Shown piece after piece: positions 2,685 through 63,740 of a DNA stretch of 64,000 nt (within the stretch, counting starts at the first letter, position 1; the number at the start of each line of letters is the position of its first letter). Under the pieces are notes generated by a model. The model searched no databases and was not told the origin of the DNA. It saw only the letters and a list, made by a program, of their open reading frames with translations. The position numbers and the translations under genes were made by a program. The stretch is taken from the IMG/VR virus record IMGVR_UViG_3300013121_000026, positions 64,001 to 128,000 of that record; one strand, 5' to 3'. Source of the stretch: a virus (Duplodnaviria > Caudoviricetes).

Positions 2685-3263
2685 ATGATTACTAACAATG
2701 AATTGCTTCCTTTTTACAAAAAATATGTTTCATTGCACGTCCATTTTGCCACGAAAAACTATGATTATAAAAAGTACAAATCAAAGACTCATGCTAACCT
2801 AGAGTCATTTCTAGAGAGAAACGATAGGAATATGTTTGCTTCCCAGTATCACTATGCCAAAGCAGATCCTGAAAAATACCTTCTTGCTAATTTCATTTAT
2901 AATGATTCCCAATACATCCTTGACTTTACAATTGACAATCTTAATGAGTACAACAAAAGAAACGAGAGCCTAACATACCATTTCCAGCAGCAATCGGAAT
3001 TATTAGCTCCAGTGTTCAATGACAATTTTAAATACACTGAAAACTCATACCCATTTCTTTTTAACGAATATGTTGCTAAGAGAATCACTATTGAGACATT
3101 ATTAATTTTAGATCAACTTTGTGGCTACCTAGCCAAGTGGAATGCATTTTACAAGGATGATGATTTCTATCAATACACGATGTTTCGAGTTAACAAATAT
3201 CGGTTAATATTCAATCCAGAAATATCCAAATTTAAAAAATTAATTCTTGACAAGTACACCTAA
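2685..3263 (+). CDS. 59: Helicase loader gp59-like
   Basis: Y.SLHVHF..KNYDYKKY..K...SF..RND, ITIETLLIL; directly upstream of gene 32. Confidence 0.8.
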   Translation: MITNNELLPFYKKYVSLHVHFATKNYDYKKYKSKTHANLESFLERNDRNMFASQYHYAKADPEKYLLANFIYNDSQYILDFTIDNLNEYNKRNESLTYHFQQQSELLAPVFNDNFKYTENSYPFLFNEYVAKRITIETLLILDQLCGYLAKWNAFYKDDDFYQYTMFRVNKYRLIFNPEISKFKKLILDKYT

Positions 3264-3355: not shown

Positions 3356-4270
3356 TTGACTACATTTGCTGAACTAAAAAAGAAACAAAAAGAACAGTTT
3401 CAAAAGCTAAACAGTAAAATTACTGAACTAAGCAATCCACAATATAGTAACGACGATGATAGATTTTGGCAACCATCTGTAGACAAGATGGGAAATGGAT
3501 ATGCCGTTATTAGATTTCTTCCAGCACCAGTTAATGAAGATGACCCATTCATTTGTATGTGGGATCACGGATTTAAAGGTCCTACAGGAAAGTGGTACAT
3601 TGAGAAGTCTCTAACTACAATTAAGAAGAAAGACCCTGTCTCAGAATTTAATTCTAAATTGTGGGCAACAGGAGAAAAGAAGAACAAGGATATTGTTTCA
3701 GGAACACCAGGTAATGGTGGTACCAAAAGACGTACATTCTTTTATTCAAACATCTATGTAGTAGATGACCCCGAACATCCAGAAAACAATGGTAAGGTTT
3801 TCTTATATCGTTATGGTAAGAAGATTTTCGATAAGTTAAACGATTTAATGAATCCAAAGTTTCCAGATGAGGAACCTGTCAATCCATTCGATTTATGGTC
3901 TGGTGCTAACTTCAAGTTGAAGATTGCACAAAAGGACGGCTATCGCAATTATGATCGCTCAGAGTTTGCTAAACCTGGTCCTGTTGCAGACGATGATGAA
4001 ATGGAAGAAATTTGGAAGAAGGAATATTCCCTACAGGAATTCCTCAATCCAGAGAACTTCAAGAGTTATGAAGAACTACAAGCTAGGCTGAATGAAGTTA
4101 TGGGCTTTACATCTGAAGACGATGAAGAAGCGCCAAAAACAACTAAGGCTAAAACGCCAAAGAAAGAAGTAGCAGTAGAAGATAACGATGAAGATCCCCC
4201 ATTTGAAGTAGATACTGATAGTGGGGACGATGACGAAGATTTTTTCAAAACACTTATTAAAAAGAAGTAA
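3356..4270 (+). CDS. 32: Single-stranded DNA-binding protein gp32
   Basis: DDRFW.P.VDK.GNGYAVIRFLPAP, YGKKIF, GANFKLKI, YRNYD.SEF, acidic tail; TTG start. Confidence 0.95.
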   Translation: MTTFAELKKKQKEQFQKLNSKITELSNPQYSNDDDRFWQPSVDKMGNGYAVIRFLPAPVNEDDPFICMWDHGFKGPTGKWYIEKSLTTIKKKDPVSEFNSKLWATGEKKNKDIVSGTPGNGGTKRRTFFYSNIYVVDDPEHPENNGKVFLYRYGKKIFDKLNDLMNPKFPDEEPVNPFDLWSGANFKLKIAQKDGYRNYDRSEFAKPGPVADDDEMEEIWKKEYSLQEFLNPENFKSYEELQARLNEVMGFTSEDDEEAPKTTKAKTPKKEVAVEDNDEDPPFEVDTDSGDDDEDFFKTLIKKK

Positions 4271-4293
4271 TTTTCGTTATTAATTCCATAAAT

Positions 4294-4335
4294 AGTGTTG
4301 TGGGTAAACTTGTTTTGCGTATTACCCACAACACT
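4294..4335 (+). terminator. 14 bp hairpin after gene 32 (terminator or 5' element of ncRNA)
   Basis: agtgttgtgggtaa (4294-4307) / ttacccacaacact (4322-4335); CATAAATA at 4288-4295. Confidence 0.55.
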
Positions 4336-4339
4336 TATT

Positions 4340-4760
4340 AAAAAATACACTATGAATTAATTGGACAAAACGATATCCAAATAAAGTTAAGATAGTACTA
4401 AATTATTAAGTACTCCGTGTGGTTCAGGATGAGAACCCAACATGGTTGCGGGCTTTATCGCAAACTGAACGTGATCTTCACATCACGTTCTTAAACCGTC
4501 CGAATTATGCAAAGACGGCAAAAATAAAAGCATTTAAGAGATGGAATACTTTAAACCATCAAAACAGAACAATATCGTTGGACTGGTATTGTTCATTGTT
4601 TGCGAAGATAAGCTGATTTTAAAAGGGTAAACCGCACTTCCTATCCTTTCCTTTAACAAGGTTTTTCTAATCCAATGTAGTAAGGGTGGCTCGACAGGTG
4701 TATCCATACTTACATTTTGCCTTAAAGGGCGAAGTGTAGGTCCAATGGCTGACAAATGTA
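4340..4760 (+). ncRNA. Candidate large structured non-coding RNA
   Basis: About ten stems including nested long-range pairings; G-U wobbles favour + strand; no convincing CDS. Confidence 0.6.
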
Positions 4761-4767
4761 AATATGA

Positions 4768-5127
4768 TTAGTTTGTTTCCAGTTTCTTTAAATTTTCTTG
4801 AGTTCTTCCAAATGTATATAGACCAAGAATTACACCAAAAGTTATATGAATTAAGCCACCACCCTGAAGAGTTAATGGAGCCCATGGTAAGTAGGCTATC
4901 TTGAATAATCCAGATAATACACCTGTTCCTATTGGTGCTAGGATAAAATCAAATACAACAAGAACTAAGTATATATAGGCAGCAGATGGTCTCCAGTATT
5001 TTACGAACCATTTTTCTTGTTGAGGTCCTTTGTAATCTGGATTAGATACAACAGGAGTTGTCTTGATTTTAATGTCTGATGTAGGTGTTTTGGTTTCTAC
5101 ATCTTCTTCCGTATCTGCTTTACCCAT
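4768..5127 (-). CDS. 3TM (GTA-type) holin-like membrane protein
   Basis: WRP...Y....FDFI..P ... W.PLTLQGGGL.H..FG.ILGL..FGRT.E. Confidence 0.75.
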   Translation of the reverse strand: MGKADTEEDVETKTPTSDIKIKTTPVVSNPDYKGPQQEKWFVKYWRPSAAYIYLVLVVFDFILAPIGTGVLSGLFKIAYLPWAPLTLQGGGLIHITFGVILGLYTFGRTQENLKKLETN

Positions 5128-5161: not shown

Positions 5162-8100
5162 TCAGATACTACAGAACCCAACATTATCATTGTTTCTTTT
5201 ACGACCATAACCATTATCTCTAGCACCAGGCATTGCTTGTTCTGGATTATGAACAGGTGGCGTTATTGATGGTGATCCTTGGGATGGTCTTTCTTTTTGA
5301 TCGTCCTTTGATAACGTTTCCTTGATTGATTCAGATGTAGGTTGTTTTGGAATATCTTCATCTTTTGGTTTAGGAATCGCATTTTCCATATCTTCAGGAT
5401 GAATAATTATTTGATCAGCAATTTGTGATGGTTTAGTATCCGGTGGAACTAATGATGCATCTCTTTGCTTTCTAAATGCAGATTCTGCAGATACCTGATC
5501 AGCAACAGATCCTAGAGTTGCTTTCTTTTCCTCAGTTTTGAAACCATCGATTGATAGGTCCTGAACAGGTGGGAATTGTTGAGCAATTTTCTGTTCTGGA
5601 TCTGTTAATTTAACTGCATCTTTGGTAGGTGGTTCTGCCGGTATATCCAGATCAGATTGTTTTGATTTAGCAACCGGTTTGTTTCTAGTAGAATTTTCTT
5701 CATCATTTATTAAACTCAATTTATGAAATTGAACTTCTGGTCGCATTCGACCACGCGATCCACCCAAATCAAAGTGCATCAGGTCAGGAACGCCACCACC
5801 ACCTAATTTTGTACCAAAAGCACCACCATAACCAATTTTAGTCATTAATTCAGGATCATTTTTTGATACCCAAGTTTTAACTCCTCTAGCTAATAGTGTA
5901 TACATTCCAGTGGTATCTTCGCCTCTATTTGGAATAGGTTTTCCATTTGGATCATAAATTTGAAAATCACCAGCATTACCACCTTTATGATGACTTTGAT
6001 TGTGACCATCTCTAGCTCCTGATGTTTGTTTTAGTGTATATCCTTCGGGTAGATAGCCTGAACCACCAACGACTGCTGCATGTAATCTATCGTTAGTACC
6101 CATTGTACCTTTGCCGACAAATTTAGTATCACCTTGTCCGGGTACTACTGATTCTTTAGTAGCTGTCTGTGATGAGGACTGCCTTGAGAGTGCTCCTAGT
6201 CTGTTACCTATCTCTTTAGAATAAGCAGTACCTGCAGTACCAAACGCATCACGTCCAACTTGTCCAGTTTCTAGCCACTTACGTGCTCCACCTTCTCCTT
6301 GATTATGCGCGTATCCTAAAACCTTTAACTTATCTTCGGAATTTAAATTCCGATACGCATTACTATTTTTTATTAAGTAGTCATGATGATACTTGGTATA
6401 TCTATCAAGGTACCTTTCTTGCATTTGTGGATCTTGTAAGTACTGCTGTCTACTAGGAGCTGACTCTCCTAATCGCTTAGCCGTGCTACTAATCTCATTA
6501 GGACCAAATTGATAGGCTCCTGAGTACTTGTTACTGGAACCTCCAATTAATCCGTACTTACCTCCACTTTCAATCTTAGCTAGCCCTTGACGATAAGCGT
6601 TCCATTGAGAGTCGTTTATACCTAGCTCTTTCTTCATATGAGTAGAATTATAATCAATTAGCTTTGAATTCTTATCCAGACCTGTACGATCACCTGATAT
6701 GATCGTATCTCCTGTAGGAGAAGATGTTTGTGTTGATGCTGTAGTACTGTTTCCACCAGTGTTTCTAGTACCAATAGCCTCACCAGCAGCTTGTGCTTGT
6801 TGTTCTGGAGATTGACCAGTAATTTGACCCCATAATGATCTAGCAGACCCCATCATAGGATTCATTCTAACATCAGCTAATTGATCTGCTTTATCTACGC
6901 CATGCTTTTCTACATCTTCATTGTACTGCTGACGTTGTCTTTCATTCATCTTAGGAGACGAAGTTTTTTGACTATCTCCCTTCTCATCCAAGTCTTTTAA
7001 AATTCTAGGCTTGCTAGTAAATGTAATGTTTGGAGAATCCAGAACAATATTAGGCGCATCAAGAGTAATTGTTCCTTGTGCCTTAGCTTTGATATTTCTT
7101 AGGGCTAAGAACTCAATGTCGCTTAGTTTAGCTTCTAATGATATTGATGACTTCTTTAATTCATAGTTATCAGTAGTGTTTTCAAAGCTGTTGTTATTAA
7201 CAATTTTTTCAGCTTCATTTTCTTTCTTGCTGCCCGTAATTCTTTCCCATGTTCTGGTCCAATGAGATTTAGCTAGTTCATCTGCCTTTTCTTCGCCATA
7301 CTTTTTAATATTATCCTGATGAACAATGTTTTGCTTGTCTTTATTCATAGACAGGAAGTATTCGCTAAATGTCTTACCACTACCTAAATAATCATTCCAT
7401 GTACTTGAAGCAAGACCTATTCCACCACCAACAGCAGCACCTAGGGCCGCTCCAGGACCGGCTCCAATACCAGCAACAGGAGCAGTCCCAATACCACCAA
7501 GCATAGCACCAACACCTGCACCTGATGCAGCCCATCCTGCAACAGACATCATTCTATTAGCATTTCTGGAATCTAAACCGCCCTCCCAGTTGCCTTTTAA
7601 TGGATCACGGTTTCTTAGTGCTTTGTCTGATTCAGATGCACTATAAGCAGACAATGCTGTTCCTGCTGCTACACCTAACGCTCCTTTAACTCCTAGTCCA
7701 CCTAGTTTAGATAAAGTAGAAACATCTTTGACGGTCTTAACAGCCTTATAGCCTGAGTATGCCTTAACTGCGTCATTTATTAAAGAGTTATTATTTTTGT
7801 CTTGCTGATTGGGTTCAATATTTCGATTAGCGTCATTATCGTTTTTTATTAATGACGTTGATTTTTTTTTAATTAGCTCATTTTCAATTCGATATTTAAG
7901 TTTGCCTAGATCTTCATCAAATTGCTTTTGCTTTTTAGAAATAACAGTGACATCTTTTTTGATGTTTTCTGTGTAAACAGCAACCTTTTTGATTTGTTGA
8001 TAGATATGTTCACTAACAGCAATGACTTTGTTTTCAAGTTTATCTAGATCTTCTGTAAATCCATCTGACAAAGCATTAATCATAGAGTAGACATCACCCT

Positions 8101-8362
8101 TATTGATTTTTTTGCCATACTTCTTGATTATTTTTTGTGCATCCGGACTTTTATCTACAGATAGTTCCGAACGATTGTTGGTAGTTGTTTCAAATGGTTT
8201 AGTGTTCGCAGTTGTCTCCGTCTGTCCTGGAAGTTCAGGCGCAACAGAACCACCAATAGGTGGAGCACCTATTGCTTGCTGAACTCCTCTGACTCCGGCT
8301 TTAAGTATTTCAGCTCCTGAAGAAGTTGTCTTACTTAAAATTTTCTCGAACATATTAGCCAT
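5162..8362 (-). CDS. 29: Tape measure / baseplate hub (gp29-like) with lysozyme-like and M15-like peptidase motifs
   Basis: 1066 aa; coiled-coil N-terminus, Gly/Ala hydrophobic segment, IESGG.Y...GAYQF, H..G.A.D...HFD; follows gp26/gp51. Confidence 0.65.
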   Translation of the reverse strand: MANMFEKILSKTTSSGAEILKAGVRGVQQAIGAPPIGGSVAPELPGQTETTANTKPFETTTNNRSELSVDKSPDAQKIIKKYGKKINKGDVYSMINALSDGFTEDLDKLENKVIAVSEHIYQQIKKVAVYTENIKKDVTVISKKQKQFDEDLGKLKYRIENELIKKKSTSLIKNDNDANRNIEPNQQDKNNNSLINDAVKAYSGYKAVKTVKDVSTLSKLGGLGVKGALGVAAGTALSAYSASESDKALRNRDPLKGNWEGGLDSRNANRMMSVAGWAASGAGVGAMLGGIGTAPVAGIGAGPGAALGAAVGGGIGLASSTWNDYLGSGKTFSEYFLSMNKDKQNIVHQDNIKKYGEEKADELAKSHWTRTWERITGSKKENEAEKIVNNNSFENTTDNYELKKSSISLEAKLSDIEFLALRNIKAKAQGTITLDAPNIVLDSPNITFTSKPRILKDLDEKGDSQKTSSPKMNERQRQQYNEDVEKHGVDKADQLADVRMNPMMGSARSLWGQITGQSPEQQAQAAGEAIGTRNTGGNSTTASTQTSSPTGDTIISGDRTGLDKNSKLIDYNSTHMKKELGINDSQWNAYRQGLAKIESGGKYGLIGGSSNKYSGAYQFGPNEISSTAKRLGESAPSRQQYLQDPQMQERYLDRYTKYHHDYLIKNSNAYRNLNSEDKLKVLGYAHNQGEGGARKWLETGQVGRDAFGTAGTAYSKEIGNRLGALSRQSSSQTATKESVVPGQGDTKFVGKGTMGTNDRLHAAVVGGSGYLPEGYTLKQTSGARDGHNQSHHKGGNAGDFQIYDPNGKPIPNRGEDTTGMYTLLARGVKTWVSKNDPELMTKIGYGGAFGTKLGGGGVPDLMHFDLGGSRGRMRPEVQFHKLSLINDEENSTRNKPVAKSKQSDLDIPAEPPTKDAVKLTDPEQKIAQQFPPVQDLSIDGFKTEEKKATLGSVADQVSAESAFRKQRDASLVPPDTKPSQIADQIIIHPEDMENAIPKPKDEDIPKQPTSESIKETLSKDDQKERPSQGSPSITPPVHNPEQAMPGARDNGYGRKRNNDNVGFCSI

Positions 8363-10908: not shown

Positions 10909-10940
10909 TATAAATAAGTTAAGTAATCGTAATATTTATA
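10909..10940. promoter_or_regulatory. Pair of oppositely oriented late promoters
   Basis: TATAAATA + at 10909-10916 and - at 10933-10940 between divergent genes 4 and 48. Confidence 0.85.
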
Positions 10941-40020: not shown

Positions 40021-40056
40021 CTCTATAAATAGTAAGAAGAAGTACTATTTATAGAG
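40021..40056. promoter_or_regulatory. 14 bp inverted repeat carrying late promoter boxes on both strands
   Basis: ctctataaatagta / tactatttatagag; + 40024-40031, - 40046-40053. Confidence 0.7.
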
Positions 40057-45797: not shown

Positions 45798-45870
45798 TAA
45801 GTGTTAAAAAGCACTTAATTATAAATAAACAGAAGATGAATTTCTATTGTTGATATAAGGAGAAAACTAT

Positions 45871-48945: not shown

Positions 48946-48983
48946 TATAAATACTCCTAGTAAGTCAAAAACTAGGAGTATTT
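48946..48983 (+). promoter_or_regulatory. Late promoter overlapping a 13 bp SD-sequestering hairpin
   Basis: TATAAATA 48946-48953; aaatactcctagt / actaggagtattt. Confidence 0.8.
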
Positions 48984-48984
48984 T

Positions 48985-49821
48985 ATGGAATATGGTTTTG
49001 TTTATATTTGGTTCGATAAGAAACACAAACGTTATTATATAGGATCACATTGGGGTGACATAGATGATGGTTATATTTGTAGTTCAAATTGGATGAAAGA
49101 TGCATATAGAAAACATCCTGAAACATTTAAGCGCAGAGTATTGACTTTAGTTTATACAAACAGAACAGATTTATTTGATGCAGAAAAAAGATGGTTAAGT
49201 TTTATTAAAAAAGAAGAAATAAGAAAAAGATATTATAATTTAAATATTTTTGGATCTGCTCCAAGATGGTTATTAAATAAAAATAAAGCTCAAACTACTG
49301 CTCAAAAAATTTCCAATACACTAACGGGCAGAAGTGTTTCTACGCAAGTAAAACAAAACTTATTAAATTATGCAAAAAGAGATAAATCTGAAGAGTGGCG
49401 AAATAAAATCGGAATTGCTAATAAAGGAAAAAGACGCTCTAATAAATTTAAAAATGAAATTAGCTGTAGAAGAAAATCAACAAAACTTTGGAATAATGGA
49501 AGCATAGCAAAATTTTGCATTGAATCGCCAGGAGCAAATTGAGTATTAGGAAGATTAAAAAATCATTCTCCGGAATGGAGAAAAAATCATAGCCAAACTA
49601 TGAAGGGCAAGAAGGTTTGGAATAACGGCGTTAAAAACAAATATTCAAATGATAAACCAGGAGCAAACTGGGTATTAGGAAGACTATCTTTTTCAGATGA
49701 ATATAAAGAAAAATTAAGTTTAGCAAAAAGAAATAAAAAAATTTGGAATAATGGTATTAAAAATAAATATTCATCAGAACCTTTAGGTAGTGAGTGGGTT
49801 TTAGGAAGATTAAAAAAATAA
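48985..49821 (+). pseudogene. GIY-YIG homing endonuclease interrupted by in-frame TGA (49540-49542)
   Basis: GFVYIW...YYIGSH.G...DGYICSS; downstream ORF in same frame; PGAN*VLGRL versus PGANWVLGRL. Confidence 0.8.
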
Positions 49822-49864
49822 ATACTATAAATAATATTGAAAACGTTTAAAGGAGAAAAAACAT

Positions 49865-53929: not shown

Positions 53930-54583
53930 ATGCGTCTAATATCAGAATACATTGAAAATCCAGTTAAATTAATAACTGAAACCACTGAGGAAGGCAAGAA
54001 GCAATACATTACGGGTCCATTTCTTCAGGCAGAAGTTGTTAATAGAAACAAGCGCATCTATCCAGTTAATATTTTGGAAAACGAAGTTAAACGCTTCACC
54101 GAAAGCCATATTAAACGCAATTGTGCATATGGTGAACTTGGTCATCCGCCAACGCCAAATGTTAATCTAGACCGTCTAGCTATTCATATTAAAGAATTAG
54201 TCAAGGAAGGAAACACTTTTACCGGTAAGGCACTAATTGCAAGTACTCCAATGGGCGATATTGTTCGTGGATTATTAAAAGATGGTGCTACGCTTGGCGT
54301 TTCTTCAAGAGCACTTGGATCACTAAAGCCCATCCAAGAAGGAATCAATCAGGTTCAGGAGGATCTGCGTTTATTAGCTATCGACGTAGTTAGCGATCCA
54401 TCAGCGCCAGATGCATATGTTAATGGCATTTTTGAAGGCAAAGAATACATCTGGGATAATGCCAATGATCGTTTTGTTGAGCAGCAATTAACAGCGGTTA
54501 AAACAATGTCAGTTGAACAGATTGAAGCAAGCAAACTAAAGTTGTTTGAGAACTTTATTAACTCAATCGTTAAAGTACGTTAA
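53930..54583 (+). CDS. 21: Prohead protease gp21
   Basis: G.F.QA...NRN.R.YP, GEL.HP, GVSSR..GS, DVV.DPS.P.A. Confidence 0.96.
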   Translation: MRLISEYIENPVKLITETTEEGKKQYITGPFLQAEVVNRNKRIYPVNILENEVKRFTESHIKRNCAYGELGHPPTPNVNLDRLAIHIKELVKEGNTFTGKALIASTPMGDIVRGLLKDGATLGVSSRALGSLKPIQEGINQVQEDLRLLAIDVVSDPSAPDAYVNGIFEGKEYIWDNANDRFVEQQLTAVKTMSVEQIEASKLKLFENFINSIVKVR

Positions 54584-54626
54584 TTTATAAATATATAGAA
54601 GAATTTTAATAAGAGGATATCACTTA

Positions 54627-63227: not shown

Positions 63228-63539
63228 TGATTCCTTATAACATAAATTTCCATGTAGAGATGAAGATAGATCAAGCTCTTTTTAATCGCATTAGGTTTAA
63301 TAGGTATGTATTTGATAGATTGTGGTGTCATCTGCTACTAGATGCAGACTTTTTGAGGAATAAATGATAGAATGAGCAATAAAAGACTACAGACACAAAA
63401 CTTACATTCACAAAATTTATGGGTTACTAATGCTTATGTAGTGAATTTTGTATATGATTTTGTTCTAAAAACCTATGAGCAGGAACAACATAAGGGGTTA
63501 CTTATACCAACTTTAATTAAGAAGACAAGATTTCATTGA
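63227..63539 (+). CDS. Mini-protein array III: 63227-63367 (ends ADFLRNK), 63372-63539 (ends TRFH)
   Basis: ATG starts; first is coupled to uvsY. Confidence 0.55.
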
Positions 63540-63551
63540 TTAGAGGTTTAA

Positions 63552-63740
63552 ATGACTGAATATTGGGTAATTGGTGGTGAATTTAATTCACTAAATTTTC
63601 ATACGTTGGATCCAGATTCCAAACAGATTTTTGGTCCATTTAATACTAGAACAGAAGCCGAAGAAAAATGGCGAGAAGTATCTGAACAATTTAGATACAA
63701 GGCCACTTTCAGGTTTAGAATTGTAACAGTGGATAATTAA
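63552..63740 (+). CDS. DUF4170-like small protein
   Basis: YWVIGGEF.S..F......FGPF.....A...W......A..RF.I; SD GAGG. Confidence 0.65.
   Translation: MTEYWVIGGEFNSLNFHTLDPDSKQIFGPFNTRTEAEEKWREVSEQFRYKATFRFRIVTVDN

Follow-up and report, generated by a model that had tools for sequence, protein, structure and literature searches.

Large structured RNA families such as GOLLD, ROOL, HEARO and manA have been defined by covariation across many genomes, and large structured RNAs were reportedly linked to phages and metagenomes by Weinberg and co-workers in 2010. Stem-loops also occur in the hyperplastic regions of T4-type phages, which harbor PeSL cassettes composed of an early promoter and a stem-loop (Arbiol et al., 2010, PMC2839356). 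Each cassette belongs to a family of repeated sequences that carry a strong sigma-70-like promoter, and the terminator stem-loops of this family gather and recombine in variable regions, marking the sites of modular exchange (PMC2839356). For T4 gene e and I-TevI, a review (PMC3014915) describes a late promoter residing in a hairpin, which controls translation. Here these systems are compared with a hairpin-rich gap of 497 nt located directly downstream of gene 32 in a distant T4-like virus.

Genomic context of the gap

The window analyzed in this work comprises 64,000 nt (bases 64001-128000) of a phage record from IMG/VR, which is 160.8 kb long and bears direct terminal repeats; coordinates below refer to this window unless genome positions are indicated. 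Closer relatives were sought with gp32 as well as with the holin-like and 1066-aa proteins described below; the closest gp32 among 5.8 billion proteins is only about 60% identical to that of this phage, which is therefore regarded as a singleton lineage. On the + strand, the gene of the gp59 helicase loader (2685-3263, identified by its PHROG helicase loader match) is followed by gene 32 (3356-4270), encoding the single-stranded DNA-binding protein gp32, which was recognized by the Pfam gp32 model (E = 3e-45); its stop codon TAA occupies 4268-4270. The right flank of the gap is formed by the gene of a holin-like three-helix membrane protein on the - strand (4768-5127; Pfam GTA_holin_3TM and PHROG holin matches). 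The holin-like protein is not truncated, since it aligns to the C-terminus of its relatives' proteins. Its gene is the last one of a late operon (baseplate-hub/holin-like), to which the gene of a 1066-aa protein (5162-8362, - strand) also belongs. According to the operon map, the genome has no other long operon on the - strand, and this one is driven by a TATAAATA box at 10940 on the - strand. The gap, spanning positions 4271-4767, is the convergence point of the + strand gp59-gp32 unit and the - strand late operon. Its base composition is the same as that of the genome, the G+C minimum of the neighborhood falls at 4200-4400, and the skew change observed at the gap is accounted for by the switch of gene strand.

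Upstream of the window the phage carries at least 22 tRNA genes and a permuted tmRNA, as revealed by ARAGORN and Rfam. The latter is a two-piece tmRNA of the alphaproteobacterial type at genome positions 63344-63740 (L042:17344-17740), i.e., just before the window, which scores 112 bits with the Rfam alpha_tmRNA model and has a tag peptide ending in ALAA. This type of tmRNA hints at an alphaproteobacterial host of the phage. A TATAAATA box is located at genome position 63371, within the 5' part of the alpha_tmRNA match.

The length of the non-coding stretch that follows gp32 was determined in 79 relatives; its median is 36 nt (95th percentile 139 nt, maximum 219 nt), and the gene after gp32 is convergent in 65 of them. 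In the nearest relatives this place is occupied by one terminator, or by an unrelated late gene together with a terminator. The gp32 and holin-like genes of L002, L003 and L034 are separated by 53-55 nt with one canonical bidirectional terminator. In L025 (3290-5173) and L030 (3366-4793), unrelated late-strand ORFs of 627 and 475 aa, one of them with a glycine-zipper match, are inserted between the holin-like gene and gp32 and are then followed by a gap of 43-54 nt, while phiM12 and S-H38 possess other accessory genes after gp32. Judging by these arrangements, the place after gp32 is a variable cargo slot. The phage under study has no counterpart of the L025 and L030 cargo ORFs, and the gap was rejected as a remnant of such ORFs, as no trace of them was found in it.

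Coding potential

The gap is non-coding. It contains open frames of 68 codons on the + strand and 77 codons on the - strand; frames of such length arise in 22-39% of random sequences of the gap composition, and the codon scores of the gap frames lie at the random median and below those of 99% of real gene windows. Neither Pfam nor PHROG matches were detected in the gap frames, and the sequence offers them no ribosome-binding site. The 68-aa + strand frame, the sole one searched with HMMER against 1.84 billion protein representatives, has no true homologue there, its matches being summed weak noise on two tandem-repeat proteins. On the - strand, at 4534-4770, the TAA of the holin-like gene is followed by 77 in-frame sense codons; since both the length and the codon score of this frame are at chance level, read-through past the TAA is not suggested. 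Small protein genes, which might be represented by a 65-68-codon frame at 4410-4616 on the + strand or by a 73-77-codon frame extending the holin-like frame on the - strand, could be invoked because such frames exist and the longer one is in phase with the holin-like gene. Considering the chance-level lengths and codon scores and the absence of ribosome-binding sites, Pfam or PHROG matches and homologues of the 68-aa frame, this explanation appears scarcely credible and was dropped.

Searches for known RNA families and homologous sequences

The Rfam 15 set used in this work included RNase P, 6S, tmRNA, group I and group II introns, GOLLD, ROOL, HEARO and manA. No family reached its gathering threshold in the whole window, and searches at E up to 10 in three nested ranges returned only noise, with HAV_CRE (22.8 bits against 55) and manA (14.6 bits against 55.2) as the best sub-threshold scores. 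The first-pass annotation, made from the sequence, had recognized no tRNA, tmRNA, RNase P or group I elements in the gap, and Rfam 15 together with ARAGORN bears this out. ARAGORN and Rfam detected no tRNA or tmRNA in the window, although both do detect RNA genes upstream of it, namely 22 tRNAs and the tmRNA. The ACAGCA(A) handle of the partner RNAs of the phage Ro60-like (DUF2828) protein is absent from both strands of the gap in a motif-only test; near-matches to ACAGCA at 4515 and 4631 are located inside predicted stems. A miniature element of the IS200/IS605 type was also considered and rejected, since neither Y1_Tnp nor the TnpB zinc-ribbon is matched in the phage and only one copy of the element exists.

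No match to the gap was found by near and distant blastn searches against 50,697 phage records. Exact 17-24-mers taken from five parts of the gap gave, in IMG/VR and in a genome set of 185,579 species, either no matches or non-extending chance matches of 17-21 nt. Comparison of the gap by blastn and tblastx with the first 39 loci retrieved for comparison and with the phage's own genome revealed no copy. A covariance model built on the single sequence of 4445-4638 likewise detected no other copy in the own genome, 123 loci and 10 whole records of relatives; its only match (21 bits, G006) proved to be an ordinary terminator between two ORFs. One search of the literature for RNAs encoded after gene 32 of T4-like phages returned nothing. 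As far as these sequence comparisons reach, the 430 nt of gap filling appear in none of the databases and genomes searched. In length, the gap is an outlier among the relatives.

Secondary structure of the gap

All 14 stems that the first-pass annotation had listed are present exactly where it had placed them, with 96 Watson-Crick pairs, five G-U pairs and one mismatch. Folded as RNA, the whole gap (4271-4767) is about five standard deviations better than its dinucleotide shuffles (z = -5.22 on the + strand and -5.09 on the - strand), and when folded as DNA it gives z = -5.04. Such near-equal scores on both strands and for DNA are to be expected of palindromes that are mostly perfect. Among 2141 GC-corrected segments of 226 nt covering the genome, those starting at 4190, 4265, 4415 and 4565 rank 5, 7, 40 and 65, respectively, i.e., the gap or its edge provides four of the best 65 of the genome. 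Three hairpin clusters of -20 kcal/mol or below occur in the gap, compared with about 0.25 expected from the genome-wide density, which corresponds to a hairpin density about 12 times the genome average. By the same fold-energy measure, the real tRNA and tmRNA regions of the phage do not stand out, and fold energy is therefore a weak indicator of an RNA gene.

The excess of folding originates from three to four near-perfect local hairpins, namely those of 14 bp at 4294-4335 (hereafter T1), 9 bp at 4467-4490, 10-11 bp at 4567-4594 and 15+4 bp at 4704-4748. The nested long-range arm, which was initially thought to close a junction of hairpins, has its pairs in place, but its 8-bp part (4458-4465/4598-4605) is at the level of chance: by our estimate, about 3.5 perfect 8-mer pairs are expected in 500 nt of the gap composition, and the gap has five perfect pairs of 8-9 bp besides the 14-bp hairpin. 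Since this arm is no better than chance, the excess is assigned to the local hairpins. The bias of G-U pairs to the + strand, also noticed earlier, is real but modest, comprising 14 versus 9 G-U pairs in the two minimum-free-energy folds.

In the 5' half of the gap, T1 is followed by a weak hairpin rich in A/T (4361-4380) and, at 4394-4414, by two AGTACT palindromes; this region (4361-4414) has no special share in the fold score, the segment starting at 4340 ranking 384 of 2141. The core (4415-4640) folds with z = -4.42 on the + strand and -3.65 on the - strand. On the + strand it has one dominant structure, the minimum-free-energy fold being identical to the centroid, with the hairpin at 4415-4445 included. 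The latter is a bulged 11-bp hairpin with one G-U pair, which according to the folds of the core is better formed on the + strand. It precedes a predicted + strand five-way junction (4447-4636), comprising a three-part closing arm and the hairpins 4467-4490, 4496-4518, 4540-4560 and 4567-4594. The last of these is terminator-like in both directions (4559-4603), since on either strand it is preceded by an A-run and followed by a U-rich one, and it is the sole site flagged in the gap by a terminator scan that did not cover T1 with its 14-nt loop. Its z value is -2.27 on the + strand and -1.16 on the - strand, and weak matches to a 3' UTR stem-loop model were obtained on both strands.

The 3' part of the gap (4637-4770) gives z = -2.35 on the + strand and -1.05 on the - strand. 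The stems 4680-4689/4704-4713 and 4716-4722/4727-4733, drawn here originally, do exist, but the region holds a G-U-rich stem of 15+4 bp at 4704-4748, which had been drawn differently. On the + strand this hairpin reaches -22.3 kcal/mol (z = -5.30) and accounts for 71% of the ensemble, whereas the same segment attains only -10.3 kcal/mol on the - strand; its 15-bp stem includes four G-U pairs but is free of A-C and other mismatches. The hairpin is the best strand-specific signal in the gap. No U-run follows it in the sequence, and U-runs are lacking from all hairpins of the gap except T1 and 4567-4594. On the - strand, a 13-bp stem with one G-U pair (4705-4766; -16.5 kcal/mol, z = -2.82) begins directly after the stop codon of the holin-like gene and competes with the + strand hairpin 4704-4748.

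As regards the genome as a whole, 50 perfect hairpins with a stem of at least 9 bp and a loop of 3-15 nt were counted, compared with 8-18 in shuffles. Inside ORFs of a crude ORF map 36 of these 50 are located, so many strong hairpins of the phage are not intergenic.

The hairpin following gene 32 and the duplicated gene end

T1 (4289-4340 with its A/T-rich flanks) is a perfect 14-bp hairpin, 4294-4307/4322-4335, with a 14-nt loop, located 24 nt 3' of the TAA of gene 32. Its energy is -21.2 kcal/mol (z = -4.86) on the + strand and -22.6 kcal/mol (z = -5.86) on the - strand. As in terminators, a stable stem containing G+C stands directly downstream of a stop codon. Compared with the short loop (3-8 nt) and U-run of the standard form, the loop is long, and the tail has five U of seven on the - strand and three of seven on the + strand; other terminators of the phage have ATTT tails similar to those of T1. 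The form AAATAG...CTATTT is that of the phage terminator at 2636-2667. Judging by its fold and form and by the canonical bidirectional terminator that L002, L003 and L034 have at this very place, T1 is probably a bidirectional terminator serving both gene 32 and the late operon.

The arms of T1 are related to the gene that precedes it. The last codons of gene 32 (4246-4263, + strand) are repeated with 17 of 18 positions identical at 4327-4344, about 81 nt downstream, thus constituting the 3' arm of T1, and the 5' arm carries an inverted copy of them (4289-4302). A repeated motif as the source of this 18-nt duplication was ruled out, as only two adjacent copies are present in the genome, the exact 14-mer of the duplication being found in just two places in 160 kb. 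An attenuator, in which the gene 32 end would pair with the 5' arm of T1, was also ruled out (z = -0.02). Since this alternative pairing is no better than in shuffles, the duplication is read as a scar, probably of an insertion or of a snap-back duplication.

Promoter-like sequences in the gap

The first-pass annotation had pointed to a late-promoter variant at 4288. The corresponding box, CATAAATA, occupies 4287-4294 on the + strand, matches the late promoter box at seven of eight positions and overlaps the A-tract and the 5' arm of T1; it turned out to be a poor candidate, as it exhibits no promoter behavior elsewhere in the phage. The genome has six copies of CATAAATA compared with about 19 expected, and none of the other five is situated within 120 nt of a same-strand gene start, whereas 27 of the 42 copies of TATAAATA are. 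In a T4-type late promoter, TATAAATA precedes the gene start by about 35-46 nt; the box in the gap, however, has C at its first position, and the next + strand gene is 6.6 kb away from it. Unlike most of the 26 well-placed TATAAATA boxes, it has neither TAAA at -15 nor the usual base after the box. Sigma-70-like promoters in the gap do not exceed chance either (7 sites compared with 8.3 expected).

The analysis of the TATAAATA boxes provided several observations of its own. Most of them are located 35-46 nt before a start codon. In 26 boxes situated 15-100 nt before a same-strand ORF start, a TAAA is frequently seen 15 nt before TATAAATA, with T at -15 in 18 boxes and A at each of the positions -14 to -12 in 15-17 boxes; this TAAA is often the stop of the previous gene. 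Examples are found at 45805-45827, 49811-49833 and 54571-54593, and the pattern may reflect late intergenic cassettes that are very uniform or else a late promoter made of two parts. At 48946-48987, a perfect 13-bp hairpin shares its 5' arm in part with TATAAATA and has AGGAG in its 3' arm, 8 nt before an ATG. This site is a switch in the style of T4 gene e and I-TevI, which would limit translation to the late transcript. Another perfect hairpin, of 14 bp at 40021-40056, has TATAAATA in both arms, providing back-to-back late promoters at 40024 (+ strand) and 40053 (- strand).

Interpretation of the gap

Taken together, these data lead us to regard the gap, tentatively, as a transcribed, hairpin-rich, lineage-specific non-coding spacer, which fills the variable cargo slot between the converging units. 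In favor of this reading are the convergent position, the form of T1, the flanks of hairpin 4567-4594, the symmetry between the strands, the variability of the slot, the outlier length, the scar and the precedent of PeSLs (PMC2839356). As to the strand transcribed and the role of the inner hairpins, we infer the following. On the + strand T1 (4289-4340) would end the transcripts of gene 32, and on the - strand it would be the last barrier to late transcripts. The remaining ~430 nt are most likely transcribed mainly as a 3' trailer of the late operon, since no good terminator is present after the holin-like gene, whereas read-through from gene 32 would cover the same ~430 nt on the other strand. 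Being near-perfect and mostly of the Watson-Crick type, the hairpins would form on either strand and could act at the RNA level, where the stacked hairpins may back up termination or cause pausing and, in addition, hinder 3' exonucleases. As a result, both polymerase streams would be kept from antisense entry into the opposite unit, and both messages would be stabilized. The hairpins probably accumulated via gain and loss of cargo cassettes, each bringing its own stem-loops, with the duplication of the gene 32 end as one of the scars. A buffer of 430 nt is not needed for this purpose, as the relatives and the other convergent junctions of the phage manage with 1-67 nt. Several observations count against the spacer: most of the inner hairpins have no U-runs, no repeated copies exist in the genome, unlike in the case of PeSLs, the core has its better, single-structure fold on the + strand, and the + strand-only G-U pairing of hairpin 4704-4748 looks like selection on a + strand RNA. 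With respect to the strand, the + strand is mildly favored by the G-U counts, the core and the 3' hairpin, and the - strand by the T1 region and by one inner hairpin lengthened by G-U pairs. The logic of transcription favors the - strand, since the late operon meets no terminator before 4567-4594 or T1, and transcripts of the + strand ought to end at T1 if the weak box is not functional.

Another explanation, which we consider rather unlikely, is a discrete, orphan, structured + strand RNA of ~400-450 nt, starting inside the 5' arm of T1 from CATAAATA or another promoter. In such a molecule T1 cannot form; its freed loop and 3' arm would pair with 4625-4707 and so bring the two ends of the molecule together around the core with its several hairpins, and hairpin 4704-4748 would protect the 3' end. 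In the modeled folds, an RNA starting at 4301 has z = -4.77, and about 23 bp of nested long-range pairs link its first 27 nt to 4625-4707; the gain due to these 27 nt beats 288 of 300 shuffles (p ~ 0.04), so the predicted end-to-end closure is suggestive, not convincing. The strand specificity and z value of hairpin 4704-4748, the coincidence of the + strand core fold with its centroid and its lower z, and the larger number of G-U pairs on the + strand agree with such an RNA, as do the position of the box over a hairpin 5' arm, a layout used by the true TATAAATA at 48946, and the richness of the phage in RNA genes (the tmRNA and 22 or more tRNAs); having no Rfam match, the RNA would be new. 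On the other hand, CATAAATA is depleted in the genome and never stands upstream of a gene, this copy of it is devoid of the TAAA at -15 and of the usual next base, and no sigma-70-like site exceeds chance. There is no U-run or other terminator at the end of the putative RNA, its long-range arm is at chance level, its fold energy tells little, given that the tRNA and tmRNA regions of the phage do not stand out, and, with no second copy in any search, there is no covariation to draw on. The undescribed phage RNA originally proposed for this place is thus retained in part: the gap is non-coding, structured beyond chance and belongs to no Rfam family, but T1 is most simply explained as the terminator of gene 32, a + strand terminator is lacking, and the arm does not exceed chance.

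A functionless origin would also account for some of the features. The end of gene 32 could be the former site of one or more lost cargo cassettes or of a mobile nuclease cassette, with the gap as a leftover in which only old regulatory palindromes and terminators are still recognizable; the variable slot, the duplicated 3' end of gene 32, the orphan, single-copy nature of the element and its genome-like base composition are consistent with this. We nevertheless find such an origin doubtful, as no residual coding signal is seen in any frame and the cargo ORFs of relatives left no trace. Moreover, neutral decay should erase hairpins, whereas four stems of 9-15 bp are still perfect or held by G-U pairs, and the hairpin density is far above that of the genome. 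Action at the DNA level, e.g., as a replication origin, a structured single-strand site or a recombination hotspot operating via cruciforms or single-stranded hairpins, seems very improbable. In its favor are the palindromes, which are mostly perfect and fold as well on one strand as on the other and as DNA, and the lowest G+C of the neighborhood, found at 4200-4400; but the gap has no iterons or repeated boxes, those of its stems that depend on G-U pairs would contain mismatches both in a cruciform and on the opposite strand, and the skew change is explained by the gene strands. T4 origins are based on promoter-driven R-loops and recombination and are not known to rely on hairpin clusters. 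The origin or single-stranded DNA element, initially offered as the alternative to an RNA, thus received no positive evidence, there being no iterons and the DNA fold being no better than the RNA fold.

The consequences of these readings differ. If the spacer reading is true, it calls for caution, as a fold z value near -5 can arise from a few palindromes. If the + strand RNA exists, the phage, which already invests heavily in RNA biology, would possess a structured RNA that is large, new and confined to a single lineage, and the switch between terminator and end-to-end closure would let one DNA segment serve two transcripts.

Comparison with known systems

Like GOLLD, ROOL, HEARO and manA, the gap extends over several hundred nucleotides, is multi-branched and non-coding, and resides in a tRNA-rich phage; it differs from them in that no Rfam model matches it and it is represented by one copy in one genome. 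The box in the gap resembles the arrangement of T4 gene e and I-TevI (PMC3014915), since in both cases a sequence like a late promoter extends over the 5' arm of a strong hairpin. Because of this overlap, a transcript from the box would be devoid of the hairpin. Unlike in the T4 case, the box is CATAAATA, the 3' arm has no ribosome-binding site and no gene follows.

T1 itself shares the form of A-run, stem and T-run with the bidirectional terminators of the phage at 2636-2667 and 57148-57176. Like the terminators of L002 and L003 at the gp32 junction, it immediately follows the stop codon of gene 32 and stands opposite a converging operon. In contrast to these terminators, T1 has a 14-nt loop and interrupted U-runs and is followed by 430 nt of further hairpins, which are absent from the relatives.

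As for the PeSL cassettes, no part of the gap recurs in the genome by blastn or by the covariance model, and no promoter in it exceeds chance, so that it differs from a repeated family with an adjacent sigma-70-like promoter. What it has in common with PeSLs is the occurrence of stem-loops in a variable, cargo-bearing region, with a short duplication at the border of the gap. If it is a terminator followed by a hairpin-rich trailer, the gap downstream of gene 32 would be an ordinary, though unusually long, case of the variable slots of T4-like phages filling with stem-loops.
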